DNA of 64,000 bases from an uncultured Pelagibacterium sp. (GTDB lineage Bacteria > Pseudomonadota > Alphaproteobacteria > Rhizobiales > Devosiaceae), in NCBI GenBank assembly GCA_964429025.1, contig CAYSBF010000002.1, positions 12,249 through 76,248 on the forward strand, read 5' to 3'. This document shows positions 13,893-45,434 of the stretch, piece by piece. The position numbers were made by a program, and so were the translations under genes. Each line of letters opens with the position of its first letter. Within the stretch, counting starts at the first letter, position 1. A model generated the notes under the pieces. The model saw nothing but the letters and a program-made list of their open reading frames with translations, made no database searches and was not told the origin of the DNA.

Positions 13893-14627
13893 TCAGAGTT
13901 CCAACCGCGCGGTCTGCGGGGCCAGCCCCGGCTCGCCCTGATAACGCTCGGCGGGTTTGCGCCGGGCGATGGCGGGGAACTGCTCCTTTTTTGCCCGCAC
14001 GCACATGACCGAGGAAAGGGTCGGCCCGAACAGCCGCCCGGTGCGTTCGAGAAGCCGCGCCGAGCGCAGCACCGGACCGGAGCGGAAGGGCGGGAAATAG
14101 ATGCAGTCGCGCCAGGCTTCGGGCGTAAAGGAATGCCCACGCAGCAGGGCGTCCATCTGCCCGCGAGAATAGGGGTGGCCGAAGCCTAAGGGCGTGTTGT
14201 CGATGCCGGCCCAGAGCCCGCGCCGCTTGGGTACGGCAATGACCAGCCGGGCATTGGGCGCGCAAACCCGCCAGAGCTCGCGCATGAATTCTTCGGCATC
14301 GACCACATGCTCGAACCCGTGGACGATAACCACGAGATCGACCGCAGCATCGGTCAGCGGCATTTCGAGCGGGTCGCAGAGAACCGTGTGGGACGGCCCT
14401 TCGCGCGGCCAGGCCGAAGCACCCTGCCGGGCCGGCATGAAGGCCAGCACCCGCTCGGCGCCCTTGAGCGCCCCACGCAGATAGGGGGTGGCAAAGCCCA
14501 GGCCAAGAATGCGCAGCCCGGTCACGTCCCCGGCAAGCGCGCTCACCTGCTCGCGGATATAGTGCCGCGTCAGTCGCCCCAGGGGGGACTTGTAAAATTT
14601 GATCAGCCCCTCGACATCGGGTGTCAT
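13893..14627 (-). CDS. Class I SAM-dependent methyltransferase (type 11-like)
   Basis: LGLGFATPY SAM-loop variant; divergent from gloB. Confidence 0.8.
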   Translation of the reverse strand: MTPDVEGLIKFYKSPLGRLTRHYIREQVSALAGDVTGLRILGLGFATPYLRGALKGAERVLAFMPARQGASAWPREGPSHTVLCDPLEMPLTDAAVDLVVIVHGFEHVVDAEEFMRELWRVCAPNARLVIAVPKRRGLWAGIDNTPLGFGHPYSRGQMDALLRGHSFTPEAWRDCIYFPPFRSGPVLRSARLLERTGRLFGPTLSSVMCVRAKKEQFPAIARRKPAERYQGEPGLAPQTARLEL

Positions 14628-14735
14628 CTGCCCTCCGCAATTTGCGCCACTATGTGGGCGCGAGCGATCAAAGGTCAAACCCTTGCCCCATCGCCTCCGG
14701 GTTTCTATGTTCGGGGCAATCAGGAAAGGAACGTA

Positions 14736-15503
14736 ATGACTGTTGAAATCGAGCTCTTTGGTGCCCTCGAGACTAATTTCGGCGTGCTGATCCGCGACGG
14801 TGGGACCGGCAAGGTCGCAGCGATCGACGCACCGGAAACCGCACCCATCGTTTCAGCGCTCGAAAGGCGCGGCTGGACCCTCGATCTCATTCTCATCACC
14901 CACCACCATTCCGACCACACCGACGCCATCCTGCCCCTCAAGGATAAATACGGCGCGACCGTCTATGGGCCGCGCGGGGAAAAGGACAAGATCGAAGGGC
15001 TCGATCATCTGGTTTCGGGCGGCGACAGGGTGAAGGTCGGCGGAACCGAATTCGATGTCATCGACGTGCCCGGCCATACCAATGGCCACATCGCCTATTA
15101 CGCCCAGGCCGAAAAGCTGCTCTTTGCGGCCGACGCCCTCTTTTCGCTCGGCGTTGGCCGCATGTTCGAGGGCACGCCGGAGATGATGTGGGAGGGGCTC
15201 CTGCGCCTGCGCGCGCTCGATCCTGAAACGAAAGTCTATTGCGGCCACGAATATACCCTTTCCAATGCCGCCTTCGCGCTTTCGGTCGATCCCGACAATG
15301 CTGCGCTCAAGGCGCGCGCCGAAGAGGCCCAGCGCCAGATCGACAATGGCGAGCCCACCATCCCCTCACGTCTGGCCGATGAAATCGCAGCCAACCCCTT
15401 CCTGCGCGCCGACGATGCGGCGATTGCACGGGCCGTGAAGCTCGAAGGCGCCCCGGCAGCCGAGGTGTTCGGCGCACTCAGGAAAGCCAAGGACAGTTTC
15501 TGA
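14736..15503 (+). CDS. gloB: Hydroxyacylglutathione hydrolase (glyoxalase II)
   Basis: THHHSDH, PGHTNGH, YCGHEYT, EIAANPFLR motifs. Confidence 0.93.
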   Translation: MTVEIELFGALETNFGVLIRDGGTGKVAAIDAPETAPIVSALERRGWTLDLILITHHHSDHTDAILPLKDKYGATVYGPRGEKDKIEGLDHLVSGGDRVKVGGTEFDVIDVPGHTNGHIAYYAQAEKLLFAADALFSLGVGRMFEGTPEMMWEGLLRLRALDPETKVYCGHEYTLSNAAFALSVDPDNAALKARAEEAQRQIDNGEPTIPSRLADEIAANPFLRADDAAIARAVKLEGAPAAEVFGALRKAKDSF

Positions 15504-42600: not shown

Positions 42601-43086
42601 CTATTGCGCGAGCACCATCACCCAATGGGTGCCATAGGCCGAATTGGGATTGTAAACCACCGCAAGGCCCGCCCGTCTTGCCGCCGCTGACGCCAGCACA
42701 TCGGCATCGGCCGGTGAATTGCGCCAGCCGGAAAATGTCTCGGCGAAATTCTCATAGCCCGCGCTCAGGCGCATCGCGCTCGTTCCAGCCGGAAGCGCGG
42801 GCGGATTGCCGCTCGATGCATATTGGCTGGCAAGCGCCTGTGCCTGCTGGTCGAGCGCAGCATCGGCGCTGAGCGCCGCAACGCCGCGCGTGGCGCGATA
42901 CTGGTTGACGATCGAAAGCGCGGCCCCGCGATCCATCTGCGCACCGGGCGTATTGATCGCCTGGGTCAGCCCCGGCGCAAGCCCGCCCCCCGAAGACCCT
43001 CCCATGCATCCGGTGAGCGCGGTCGCGATCAGCAGGCTCGCGGCAAGCGCGGGGCCGGTGGAACGAAGACGGAAGGTTAGCGGCAT
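42601..43086 (-). CDS. CAP (SCP-like) domain lipoprotein
   Basis: LTGC lipobox; NQYRATRG, FSGWRNS, YW-like HWVMVLA end. Confidence 0.8.
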   Translation of the reverse strand: MPLTFRLRSTGPALAASLLIATALTGCMGGSSGGGLAPGLTQAINTPGAQMDRGAALSIVNQYRATRGVAALSADAALDQQAQALASQYASSGNPPALPAGTSAMRLSAGYENFAETFSGWRNSPADADVLASAAARRAGLAVVYNPNSAYGTHWVMVLAQ

Positions 43087-43119
43087 GGAAAGGGTCCGGT
43101 CTCTTGTAAAAATCATCGT

Positions 43120-43134
43120 CCGCAACCCTTGCCG
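43120..43134. promoter_or_regulatory. ftr-like (FlbD-type) enhancer candidate
   Basis: CCGCAA-ccc-TTGCCG, one mismatch from the palindrome CGGCAA-N3-TTGCCG, about 115 bp upstream of the sigma54 site. Confidence 0.4.
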
Positions 43135-43164
43135 CAACAAGGGCGCGAAATTGCGGCGGTTTTC

Positions 43165-43180
43165 CTAACCGGACATTAAC
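43165..43180. promoter_or_regulatory. CtrA-like site
   Basis: CTAA-ccggaca-TTAAC (7/8); further TTAAC half-sites at 43198 and 43230. Confidence 0.45.
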
Positions 43181-43230
43181 GCTCGCCCGGTGGGGGCTTA
43201 ACCATGAAACGCGATCATTGGGTAAAGCGT

Positions 43231-43243
43231 TAACAAAAGGTTG
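43231..43243 (+). promoter_or_regulatory. IHF-like site
   Basis: TAACAA-aagg-TTG, one mismatch from WATCAA-N4-TTR, just upstream of the -24 element. Confidence 0.45.
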
Positions 43244-43248
43244 CCAAC

Positions 43249-43264
43249 TGGCACGCTGCCTGCA
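43249..43264 (+). promoter_or_regulatory. Sigma54 (-24/-12) promoter
   Basis: TGGCACG-ctgc-CTGCA: GG-N10-GC spacing, one mismatch from TGGCACG-N4-TTGCW. Confidence 0.65.
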
Positions 43265-43340
43265 ACCTGATGGGCAGGCAAGGGCAAAACCCGTTTCAAA
43301 ACGGGACAAATGTGCCAAAATCGGAACAGGAAGGGTCATC

Positions 43341-43589
43341 TTGCGCGCGGATCGCAACAACGAGAAGCCCATTTCGGCACAAAGGCTGCCCATCAGCATC
43401 GCTGCGCCGCGCCCGCGCGCCTACCCCGCCGCTGCCCGCCCGGCCGCCGCCTTCCTTGCTCAATTGCTCACCGGGCGCCCCAATATCGCACCTGCCAGGG
43501 CAAACCAGGCCGATTGCAGCTATCGGCGGGCCGAGCAGAGCGACATCAAGCGCGTCCCTCCTGGCTACCGCACAAATCGCAGCGCCTGA
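43341..43589 (+). CDS. Hypothetical 82-aa protein downstream of the sigma54 promoter
   Basis: AGGAAGG RBS 6 nt before TTG 43341; RPAAAFLAQLL core; ends RVPPGYRTNRSA. Confidence 0.6.
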   Translation: MRADRNNEKPISAQRLPISIAAPRPRAYPAAARPAAAFLAQLLTGRPNIAPARANQADCSYRRAEQSDIKRVPPGYRTNRSA

Positions 43590-43654
43590 TCGCCTGATCC
43601 CCCGCGTCTGAACCCCCACGCAGCACCGGCGGGCGCGGTCTGTCCGATCCGCAC

Positions 43655-43692
43655 GTCATGTTTTTCTCACCCAATGTATGAAAAACTTGACA
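43655..43692 (+). promoter_or_regulatory. Inverted-repeat operator overlapping a TTGACA -35
   Basis: GTCATGTTTTTC-N13-GAAAAACTTGAC (11/12); TTGACA at 43687-43692, N17, CATAAG. Confidence 0.55.
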
Positions 43693-43755
43693 TCGATCGC
43701 CCACGGCTGCATAAGGAGCCTCACCAACCCAACGCTTCTCTCGGAGGCAGGCGCG

Positions 43756-44187
43756 ATGAGTTACAAGGAATGGACGGCTGTCGTTCAGCTTTTCGGTGCC
43801 GCCGTCATCGGCATCTGGCTGGCGTTCGACGCTTTTGGACCCGGGCTGGGGGACGGCACGACGGCCGGGCTCGCCATCCGGCTGCTCTGGGCTGTGGGCG
43901 GGATCATCGCAGTCAACGTGATCGGAATGATTGTCGTGACCATCGTCGTGACGGTGGTGCGAAAGCGCGAATTTGCCGACGAACCCGCCGATGAGCGCGA
44001 CGACATGATCGACGCCCGCTCAAGCCGCATCGGCTACATCGTTACCTCGTCTGTTGCCGCGCTCGTGCTCATTCCCCTGGCCATGGGCGCGGACCCGAAG
44101 CTTGCCATTGCCGCGCTCTTTCTTGCGCCAGTGGCGGGCGGTGTCGCCCATGCGGCGGCCCAGCTCGCCTTTTACCGGATGGGGTAG
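43756..44187 (+). CDS. Four-TM membrane protein (DUF2178-like)
   Basis: GGAGG RBS; hydrophobic helices; ADERDDMIDAR motif; precedes XRE HTH gene. Confidence 0.7.
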   Translation: MSYKEWTAVVQLFGAAVIGIWLAFDAFGPGLGDGTTAGLAIRLLWAVGGIIAVNVIGMIVVTIVVTVVRKREFADEPADERDDMIDARSSRIGYIVTSSVAALVLIPLAMGADPKLAIAALFLAPVAGGVAHAAAQLAFYRMG

Positions 44188-44192
44188 GACCC

Positions 44193-44423
44193 ATGGGCAA
44201 GGGCAAGGCGAGGATCGCCAACACGATCCGTACCTTGAGATTTCATGCCGGTGAGATGACCCAGGCCGAGCTCGCGGAAAGGGTCGGGGTCACCCGCCAG
44301 ACCATACTTGCCATGGAACAGGGCCGCTATTCGCCTTCCCTGGAAGTCGCCTTCAGGATCGCCCGCGTCTTCGGCGTCTCGATCGAAGAGGTATTCCAGT
44401 ACGAGGGCGGGCCGGAAAGCTGA
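44193..44423 (+). CDS. XRE/Cro-CI family HTH regulator
   Basis: TQAELAERVGVTRQTILAMEQGRYSPSLEVAF. Confidence 0.93.
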   Translation: MGKGKARIANTIRTLRFHAGEMTQAELAERVGVTRQTILAMEQGRYSPSLEVAFRIARVFGVSIEEVFQYEGGPES

Positions 44424-44444
44424 ACCGAACAGAATCGGAGATCG

Positions 44445-45434
44445 ATGATGAAAGCCGTTGTCTTTGACCGCTACGGCCCGCCCGATGTCATGCGCATCGT
44501 GGACCTGCCTCGGCCCGTGCCGGGCGACGATGAAGTGCTCATCGCCATCCAGGCCTCGGTCGCCACCCCTCCCGACTGCGCCTTTAGAAGCGCCAATCCC
44601 TTCATCATCCGCCTGATGTTCGGGCTCACCCGTCCGCGCAATAACCGGCTGGGCACGGTGCTGGCCGGAATCGTCGAGGCGGTGGGCAAGAACGTCACCC
44701 GCTTCCGGCCGGGCGATAAGGTCTATGGCGCCTCCGACGAGGCAATGGGCACCTACGCCGAGCATTTCGCGCTCAAGGAGACTGCGGTGCTGGCCCGAAT
44801 CCCGGAACGAATTTCCTTTGGCGAGGCAGCCGGCCTCTGCGAGGGATTTTTGACAGCCATGCCGTTCCTGCGCGATGAGGCAAGGCTTGTGCCCGGCCAG
44901 TCGATCCTCATCAATGGCGCCTCAGGCAATATCGGCTCGGTCGCCGTGCAATTGGCAAAGGTCATGGGCGCCGAAGTCACCGGCGTTGCCAGCGCCCGCA
45001 ATCGCGATCTTGTGCTCTCGCTCGGTGCCGATCATTTCATCGATTACGGCCAGGATGACTTCACCGCCCACAAGGGCCGCTATGACGTCATCTTCGATGC
45101 CGTCGGCAAATCCTCGTTTTCTCGCGCGAAACCGGCGCTTAAACCCCAAGGCATCTACATGACCACCGTACCGAGCCTGGGGATCATCATCCCCACGCTT
45201 CAGGCCAGAAAGGCAAAGGGGAAAAAAGGCCTGCTCGCCACCACCGGCCTGCGCAAGCCTGAGGATAAGCTCAAGGACCTGAACCTTCTTTCGGAGATGA
45301 TCGCCGCCGGCAAATTGCGCTGCGTCATCGACCGTACCTACCCGCTCGACAAGATTGCCGAGGCGCATGCCTATGTGGAAACCGGCCGCAAGCGCGGAAG
45401 CGTCGTCATCGAAATGACCAGGGATGCGGCCTAG
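44445..45434 (+). CDS. NAD(P)-dependent MDR-family (quinone-reductase-like) oxidoreductase
   Basis: INGASGNIG, YDVIFDAVG, AEAHAYVETG; zinc-ligand Cys motifs not evident. Confidence 0.88.
   Translation: MMKAVVFDRYGPPDVMRIVDLPRPVPGDDEVLIAIQASVATPPDCAFRSANPFIIRLMFGLTRPRNNRLGTVLAGIVEAVGKNVTRFRPGDKVYGASDEAMGTYAEHFALKETAVLARIPERISFGEAAGLCEGFLTAMPFLRDEARLVPGQSILINGASGNIGSVAVQLAKVMGAEVTGVASARNRDLVLSLGADHFIDYGQDDFTAHKGRYDVIFDAVGKSSFSRAKPALKPQGIYMTTVPSLGIIIPTLQARKAKGKKGLLATTGLRKPEDKLKDLNLLSEMIAAGKLRCVIDRTYPLDKIAEAHAYVETGRKRGSVVIEMTRDAA

Follow-up and report, generated by a model that had tools for sequence, protein, structure and literature searches.

A probable sigma-54-dependent single-gene unit with a structured leader and a small basic protein in Pelagibacterium and related Alphaproteobacteria

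The present study concerns a short segment (43229-43589) of a 64,000-nucleotide stretch of DNA from an uncultured Pelagibacterium sp. (Devosiaceae), referred to here as the window, for which the closest named genome is that of Pelagibacterium sediminicola. The segment is very probably a self-contained single-gene unit consisting of a sigma-54 promoter, a structured leader and a small basic protein, and the gene is best regarded as a new sigma-54 regulon member. An original prediction, made from the letters of the window, had described an enhancer-dependent sigma-54 promoter, a leader hairpin, a ribosome-binding site and an undescribed 82-amino-acid open reading frame (ORF) from TTG 43341, and had read them as a late flagellar or motility gene. 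Every motif it listed is present where it was placed, and the promoter, leader hairpin, ribosome-binding site and small gene are all supported by the comparisons given below; the flagellar reading is unsupported. The parts of the unit are as follows.

43229-43245, forward strand: promoter-proximal element GTTAAC-AAAAGG-TTGCC, ending 3 nt before the -24 box, with an IHF-like TAACAA-N4-TTG at 43231-43243
43249-43264, forward strand: sigma-54 -24/-12 promoter TGGCACG-CTGC-CTGCA, with GG at 43250-51 and GC at 43262-63 (GG-N10-GC)
43275, forward strand: start of transcription as predicted from promoter geometry, 12 nt past the C of the -12 GC
43277-43316, forward strand: two-tier leader stem-loop, with outer stem GGCA/UGCC and inner hairpin CCCGTT/AACGGG at 43290-43305
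43316-43334, forward strand: second copy of an A-rich GGrACA motif (AAAATCGGAACA), then the Shine-Dalgarno sequence AGGAAGG (43328-43334)
43341-43589, forward strand: small-protein gene, TTG start, stop codon 43587-43589, 82 amino acids, 9.0 kDa, isoelectric point (pI) 11.5

The sequence TGGCACGCTGCCTGCA at 43249-43264 has one mismatch to the consensus TGGCACG-N4-TTGCW, and its essential bases are held constant across a wide range of relatives. Five close loci have an invariant TTGCCAACTGGCACG-N4-CTGCAAC, in which the four spacer bases vary. TGGCA-N7-TGC, with its distance to the start codon, is kept in four more distant loci that were found by their protein (P. halotolerans, P. nitratireducens, Maritalea and Devosia) and in six further protein-found loci from Pelagibacterium and Rhizobiales. 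The Cohaesibacter locus, which was reached via a neighbouring gene, reads TGGCCCG-N4-TTGCT. Altogether, TGGC-N8-TGC occurs about 75 nt before the start codon in 16/16 loci that were found independently of the promoter sequence, with GG and GC invariant and the spacer free to vary, and wherever the shared start could be picked unambiguously the start codon lies 72-80 nt after the -12 GC. A 17-base pattern combining the upstream element with the -24/-12 boxes was then scanned over 185,579 genomes (596 Gb), giving at least 122 matches, compared with about 70 expected by chance according to our estimate from pattern length and collection size. Among the matches listed, 61 had an ORF of the family just downstream, including loci of Stappia, Breoghania, Cucumibacter and a metagenome-assembled genome (MAG) of Rhodobiaceae, and positions not forced by the pattern also fit the sigma-54 consensus (cTGGCAcg..g.TTGC). 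No sigma-70-like hexamers were found near the repeat upstream of -24. Judged by this conservation between genomes, 43249-43264 is a genuine sigma-54-type promoter.

The small gene carries a clear coding signal. Its G+C content at third codon positions (GC3) is 0.76, similar to that of adjacent genes; nucleotide differences among homologues are concentrated at third codon positions, and the pairwise ratio of nonsynonymous to synonymous change (dN/dS) is 0.29-0.47 in frame, compared with values above 0.9 in 18 of 20 pairs for the two shifted frames. Four close homologues have 82-83 residues and start as in the window. The mechanical ORF list showed only a 123-amino-acid version starting at 43218, which the original prediction had called a spurious start. 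This longer version is rejected, its first 41 codons having a GC3 of 0.44 and overlapping the conserved promoter and leader; in three Pelagibacterium loci (L013, L052 and L055) the open frame begins just 2-5 codons before the shared start, so that a longer version is impossible there. An ORF on the minus strand (43296-43619, GC3 0.63) was likewise discarded. On these comparisons, the 82-amino-acid ORF is a genuine protein gene under purifying selection.

Its product belongs to a family without a described member. An exhaustive profile search returned 25 representative clusters, mostly of 77-99 residues (range 62-99), and a profile search of a larger collection returned 118 homologue clusters. 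Those homologues with a named source (Pelagibacterium, Maritalea, Devosia and a Devosiaceae MAG) are labelled 'hypothetical protein', the label given in RefSeq genomes, or 'Uncharacterized protein'. Three motifs characterize the family: R-x-SAH-RLP near the N-terminus, a central RPxAAFLAQLL, and a C-terminal AYRxxExSDxKRxPxGYRKxLSA. Members are very basic, with medians of 11.3 for pI and +7 for net charge. An AlphaFold2 model built from a 29-sequence alignment is of low confidence, having a predicted local distance difference test score (pLDDT) of 64 and a predicted template modelling score (pTM) of 0.19, with helices at 34-43 and 54-66 and the rest unstructured, so the product is predicted to be strongly basic and mostly disordered, with two short helices. 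Searches of Pfam and NCBIfam matched the window protein to 0 families and gave only noise for 29 family members, and the best E-value in a PDB sequence search with the family was 0.96.

Between promoter and gene lies a leader of about 66 nt with a conserved RNA structure. Minimum free energy folds of 63 leaders had a mean z of -1.84, with 27 of the 63 below -2, and most consisted of an outer stem around an inner hairpin. The sequence of the outer stem is clade-specific yet complementary (GGGCCAG/CUGGCCC, GAGCCAUG/CAUGGCUC and GGGCA/UGCCC), and the inner hairpin has the form GUnnC-loop5-GnnAC in the family-wide register, at 43293-43307 in the window. A covariance model built from 40 leaders matched each locus once and only once on the forward strand across 0.48 Mb, the match in the window being 43273-43343. 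In the model-based alignment, which is biased towards the structure used to build it, 73% of cells are paired, compared with 35-44% when partners are slid by 1-3 columns, and 67 cells are changed on both sides, compared with 16-37 in the slid controls. The inner hairpin is paired in 87% of cells, CG, UA and UG alternating at the variable positions, and RNAalifold recovered the same inner hairpin from an independent MAFFT alignment. Since the arms covary, the hairpin reflects RNA pairing and not a protein-binding DNA palindrome. It was also considered as a TGT-N10-ACA NifA site and rejected, the spacing being N11 and the arms covarying as RNA pairs. The whole window gave no match to the leader in Rfam 15 at the gathering threshold, and a search of 1 kb at E up to 10 gave two chance-level matches on the other strand (E 2.5-3). 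The Shine-Dalgarno sequence AGGAAGG, 6 nt before TTG 43341, is conserved, as is the hairpin, which shows compensatory changes.

Two minor features of the leader were also recorded. The motif AAAA-N1-2-GGrACA occurs twice, at 43298-43310 within the 3' arm of the hairpin and at 43316-43329 abutting the Shine-Dalgarno sequence, and Devosia leaders have a corresponding repeat, UUUGAGACA, also in two copies; such duplication could permit alternative pairing or provide paired protein-binding sites. In a Pelagibacterium MAG (L138:~1330-1480), the leader is interrupted between the inner hairpin and the outer stem's 3' arm by about 117 inserted nucleotides that themselves contain inverted repeats.

Upstream of the promoter-proximal element, the region shared with a divergent gene contains several further motifs.

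42601-43086, divergent from the small ORF: gene for a CAP-domain lipoprotein
43120-43134, forward strand: ftr-like site 1, CCGCAA-N3-TTGCCG, exact match
43142-43157: 16-bp palindrome GCCGCAA-AA-TTGCGGC in an imperfect copy (GGCGCGAAATTGCGGC), some 125 nt upstream of the predicted start
43147-43156: site 2, GAAATTGCGG, within the palindrome copy
43165-43180: CTAA-N7-TTAAC, CtrA-box-like (8/9 positions), which may serve either divergent gene
43198-43205, forward strand: TTAACCAT, CtrA half-site-like, about 75 nt before the predicted start and invariant in close relatives

The original prediction had taken sites 1 and 2 for ftr-like enhancers, and this part did not survive comparison. Site 1 overlaps an 18-nt hairpin specific to the window (CCCTTG-CCGCAA-CAAGGG), is absent from the close relatives L007, L008, L010 and L013, and is probably not part of the system. 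Site 2 belongs to a palindrome that is perfect or near-perfect in six Pelagibacterium loci (L013, L016, L040, L052, L055 and L120), at -85 to -109 from GTTAAC. Its distance to the predicted start is about 125-130 nt, and about 150 nt in regions with a 22-nt insertion. It was not found in Devosia, Maritalea or Stappia, and it is shared with the divergent gene: it may be a candidate enhancer or an operator of the CAP-lipoprotein gene. The palindrome and the CTAA-N7-TTAAC box together (43142-43180) lie 57-95 nt upstream of the CAP gene and may be parts of its promoter.

Closer to the promoter, conservation is broader. The promoter-proximal element has the family form (G/C)TTAA(C/T)-N6-TTRnC; an A-rich tract stands in front of it, and its end is 3 nt from TGGC. 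Of the 16 pattern-independent loci, 15 have TTAA-N7-TT, and L141 reads TA. Most loci keep the form TAACAR-N4-TTR, and a perfect TTAA-N7-TTAAC occurs in seven Devosia loci and in Cohaesibacter, where an IHF reading fails. Further TTAAC copies are set at regular distances: one lies exactly 31 nt, or 3 helical turns, before GTTAAC in 26/63 loci, the full TTAACCAT being found at -30 to -33 in 18/63, and Pelagibacterium loci keep TTAC/CTAA-N7-TTAAC, in which the TTAAC is 53-54 nt before the promoter-proximal one (about 5 helical turns). Two motifs, TTAA-N7-TTAA and TTAACAT, are known for CtrA (PMC4287350). Going by its bases, the element fits IHF and CtrA about equally, so that of the IHF site first proposed here the conserved position just upstream of -24 stands and its identity is rivalled by a CtrA box.

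Transcription of the locus is indicated by a compost metatranscriptome, in which a 160-nt contig corresponds to 43295-43454 at 100% identity. Coverage of the divergent CAP gene extends to 43083, and no contig of that dataset lies over 43084-43294, a pattern compatible with initiation somewhere from 43084 to 43295. Manure and compost metagenomes carry nearly identical DNA.

The module as a whole (promoter, leader and ORF) is carried by Devosiaceae, Stappia and Breoghania, Cohaesibacter and a Rhodobiaceae MAG, and a distant version is probably present in Maricaulis. Its neighbours differ between lineages (gloB/fumC, CAP lipoprotein/PilZ, amtB/ggt, phaR and GGDEF-EAL). No flagellar neighbour was found in any locus with annotated neighbours (of about 70 related loci) or among the window ORFs scanned, and the protein matches no known family; the late flagellar or motility microprotein originally proposed is not supported. 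One neighbour does recur, an uncharacterised protein of about 135 amino acids with four hydrophobic helices by inspection, which begins MFIPPLLALPL..YN, contains LLFGEILKATRFG and DHMLST, and has no significant match in Pfam or NCBIfam. Examples of its gene are:

L013:6264-6671, reverse strand: membrane-protein gene
L016:6260-6664, reverse strand: membrane-protein gene
L053:952-1458, forward strand: membrane-protein gene
L136:5001-5420, forward strand: membrane-protein gene

This gene lies 0.1-1.9 kb from the promoter in 59 of 72 family loci. It is convergent with the small ORF in Devosiaceae, Cohaesibacter, the Rhodobiaceae MAG and Maricaulis, and upstream on the same strand in Stappia, Breoghania and an uncultured Hyphomicrobiales MAG (L095). 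That linkage is kept despite the change of orientation suggests a functional pair. In Hoeflea, the membrane protein is present without the small ORF. A Maricaulis MAG (L056:3768-4150) has the same upstream element and sigma-54 pattern, with an ATG about 12 nt after the -12 GC that opens a 109-amino-acid ORF of weak similarity to the family (9 bits), and with the convergent membrane-protein gene; it is probably a leaderless, distant family member outside Hyphomicrobiales.

From these features, a working model of the unit can be proposed. Sigma-54 RNA polymerase would bind at 43249-43264 and start near 43275 only with an AAA+ enhancer-binding protein; the need for such an activator follows from the established sigma-54 mechanism, and FlbD, NtrC or another protein could fill the role. 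The TTAAC-N6-TTRnC element 3 nt before -24 would bind either IHF, bending the DNA, or CtrA, providing a cell-cycle gate, and the TTAAC(CAT) copies that lie in phase with it, 3 and 5 helical turns upstream, may bind IHF or CtrA likewise. The leader hairpin could tune translation or mRNA stability. More speculatively, the protein may work by binding a partner, the best candidate being the linked four-helix membrane protein. The fullest form of this model, an ancient alphaproteobacterial unit in which a CtrA-gated sigma-54 promoter and a new leader RNA control a microprotein acting on the membrane protein, is a conjecture that we consider rather unlikely. If it were true, a CtrA-gated module would link sigma-54 signalling with the cell cycle of dimorphic Hyphomicrobiales and Maricaulales.

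Several observations weigh against the unit as proposed. At one mismatch or fewer, the promoter is the sole match in the window, with 0.73 expected and at least one match in 50 of 100 shuffles; at two mismatches or fewer there are 8 matches compared with 11.5 expected. The window match is thus no rarer than chance, and the case for the promoter rests on the comparison across genomes. No genes for rpoN or an enhancer-binding protein were seen among the ten large window ORFs scanned, and no palindromic enhancer or activator site common to all lineages was found. The promoter-proximal repeat of the window, TTAA-N7-TTGC (43230), makes a poor full CtrA site. Pairing in the outer leader helix reaches just 60% in a fixed alignment, and the metatranscriptomic support is one low-depth contig, possibly including DNA. 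Finally, the membrane-protein gene is absent from the locus in the window, in P. sediminicola and in two related metagenome contigs, so the pairing is not obligatory in cis.

Other explanations of the locus must also be considered. The arrangement resembles class III/IV-type flagellar promoters, at which FlbD acts from ftr enhancers together with IHF, and would on that footing drive a late flagellar or motility microprotein. Caulobacter late flagellar genes do share the layout of a sigma-54 promoter and IHF-like element (PMC3930126), and a start-site study in Caulobacter reports 33 sites with the RpoN motif, divided into two classes of which one is flagellar (PMC4287350). The palindrome of Pelagibacterium stands at the usual enhancer distance, about 125 nt before the predicted start, and a small disordered protein would be like some secreted flagellar regulators. 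Genera carrying the module are mostly motile. This is nevertheless a quite unlikely account: site 1 is unconserved, the palindrome is confined to Pelagibacterium and also lies upstream of the divergent gene, the annotated loci have no flagellar neighbour, and no flagellar family was matched in Pfam, NCBIfam or PDB. A net charge of +7 is also unlike that of typical flagellar chaperones or export substrates. A nitrogen or metabolic regulon, with an NtrC-like activator and a bend by IHF as at glnHp2 or nifH and with no link to the cell cycle, seems unlikely as well. Among sigma-54 activators with a GAFTGA loop, NtrC is the most widespread one in this order, and the Stappia module is just downstream of an ammonium transporter gene and beside one for gamma-glutamyltranspeptidase. 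GTTAACA-N5-TT also occurs at equal spacing before sigma-54 sites in a Chromatiales MAG (L049, an apparent glutamine synthetase) and a Rhodospirillales MAG (L046, an apparent IscA/HesB-type protein), the gene identities being taken from N-terminal sequence only; the two bacteria are unrelated to the carriers, and these matches are within the number that chance would give for a pattern of this kind in 596 Gb. The module yielded no NtrC-type site, the neighbouring genes vary by lineage, and in-phase TTAAC repeats are not a known feature of NtrC control.

A direct role for CtrA, which by binding beside -24 would block or assist the closed complex and so limit the protein to one cell type, is a tentative possibility of some substance. 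The carriers are budding or asymmetrically dividing alphaproteobacteria. The perfect TTAAC-N6-TTAAC, 3 nt before TGGC, of Devosia and Cohaesibacter speaks for it, as do the TTAACCAT fixed 31 nt upstream in many loci and the third TTAAC at 53-54 nt, all in phase, the published CtrA motifs being TTAA-N7-TTAA and TTAACAT (PMC4287350). In Pelagibacterium, including the window, however, the second half-site is usually TTGCC, a better fit to the TTR of IHF, the A-rich tract before the element is as at IHF sites, and Stappia lacks TTAACCAT. CtrA-like boxes are usually placed at the -35 of sigma-70 promoters (PMC4287350), which raises the further alternative that the sigma-54-like motif is not a working promoter, the RNA arising instead from a CtrA-activated sigma-70 start or being mainly non-coding or antisense. 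In Devosiaceae, the small ORF is convergent with the membrane-protein gene, their 3' ends touching or overlapping, so that read-through would be antisense to that gene. Such an account is highly improbable: invariance falls on precisely the bases of the sigma-54 consensus, nothing like a -10 A/T element stands at the appropriate distance, the small ORF carries a strong coding signal, and the Stappia genes are tandem rather than convergent. As regards CtrA, we also know of no precedent for its action at a sigma-54 promoter.

Comparison of the sigma-54-driven unit with described systems helps to define what is new. With the class III/IV flagellar promoters of Caulobacter crescentus, it shares -24/-12 boxes of the GGCNC-N4-CTTGC type with a conserved IHF-like element directly upstream; the loci of Pelagibacterium alone add a palindrome as far off as an enhancer would be. 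It differs in having no family-wide ftr-type enhancer, in lying outside flagellar clusters wherever neighbours were annotated, in a product without flagellar homology, and in a promoter-proximal element that may be a CtrA box instead of an IHF site. Membership of the FlbD/ftr class fails on the defining feature that is directly testable, namely the identity of the gene as flagellar. The NtrC-dependent glnHp2 and NifA-dependent nifH promoters show the same order of candidate enhancer, bend site (at about -45) and -24/-12 boxes and, by known mechanism, would share the requirement for an AAA+ activator. In contrast to them, non-coding DNA ahead of the proximal element amounts to only about 50-100 nt in the module of Devosia and Maritalea, which implies an enhancer that is very close, inside the upstream gene, or downstream. 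CtrA-regulated alphaproteobacterial promoters offer the likeness of a TTAAC direct repeat with an 11-bp pitch and TTAACCAT phased by whole helical turns, but in the module the repeat abuts the sigma-54 -24 box and does not replace the -35 of a sigma-70 promoter, and in the window its second half-site is degenerate. By analogy, the protein may also be compared with small disordered regulators that become folded upon a partner, such as FlgM-type anti-sigma factors, which have around 80-100 residues, low predicted order and short helices, and similarly form a single-gene unit connected with an alternative sigma factor; it differs from them in being strongly basic (pI ~11) and in having no sequence or profile similarity. 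The promoter class is well known; what is not in Pfam, NCBIfam, Rfam or PDB is the protein family together with the candidate leader RNA motif and the conserved pair of genes.

Sigma-54 regulons beyond nitrogen and flagellar control are poorly charted in alphaproteobacteria, and the locus offers a compact, deeply conserved target: a single promoter, a single leader hairpin and a 9-kDa product. Should the TTAAC repeats be CtrA sites, the cell-cycle master regulator would act directly at a sigma-54 promoter, a case that to our knowledge has not been described. The example also illustrates that a sigma-54 promoter alone is insufficient grounds for labelling a gene as flagellar.

The other genes flanking the unit in the window encode a PilZ protein and TusA, and downstream of the small ORF are genes for a DUF2178/DUF6442-like membrane protein, an XRE-type regulator and a zinc-type dehydrogenase, followed by that for fumarase C. 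These three genes form a block (43678-45434) that separates the small ORF from fumC, and P. halotolerans has the ~135-amino-acid membrane-protein gene in the place of this block. A TTGACA-N17-CATAAG sequence belonging to the block (43687-43715) is kept in L008 and L010 and was not flagged in the promoter scan. In Devosia and Maritalea, gloB (hydroxyacylglutathione hydrolase) is immediately upstream of the small ORF, typically ending within about 100 nt of the promoter-proximal element. In the window, gloB is at 14307-15503, 28 kb from the small ORF, indicating that the intervening region has been rearranged in the Pelagibacterium lineage.

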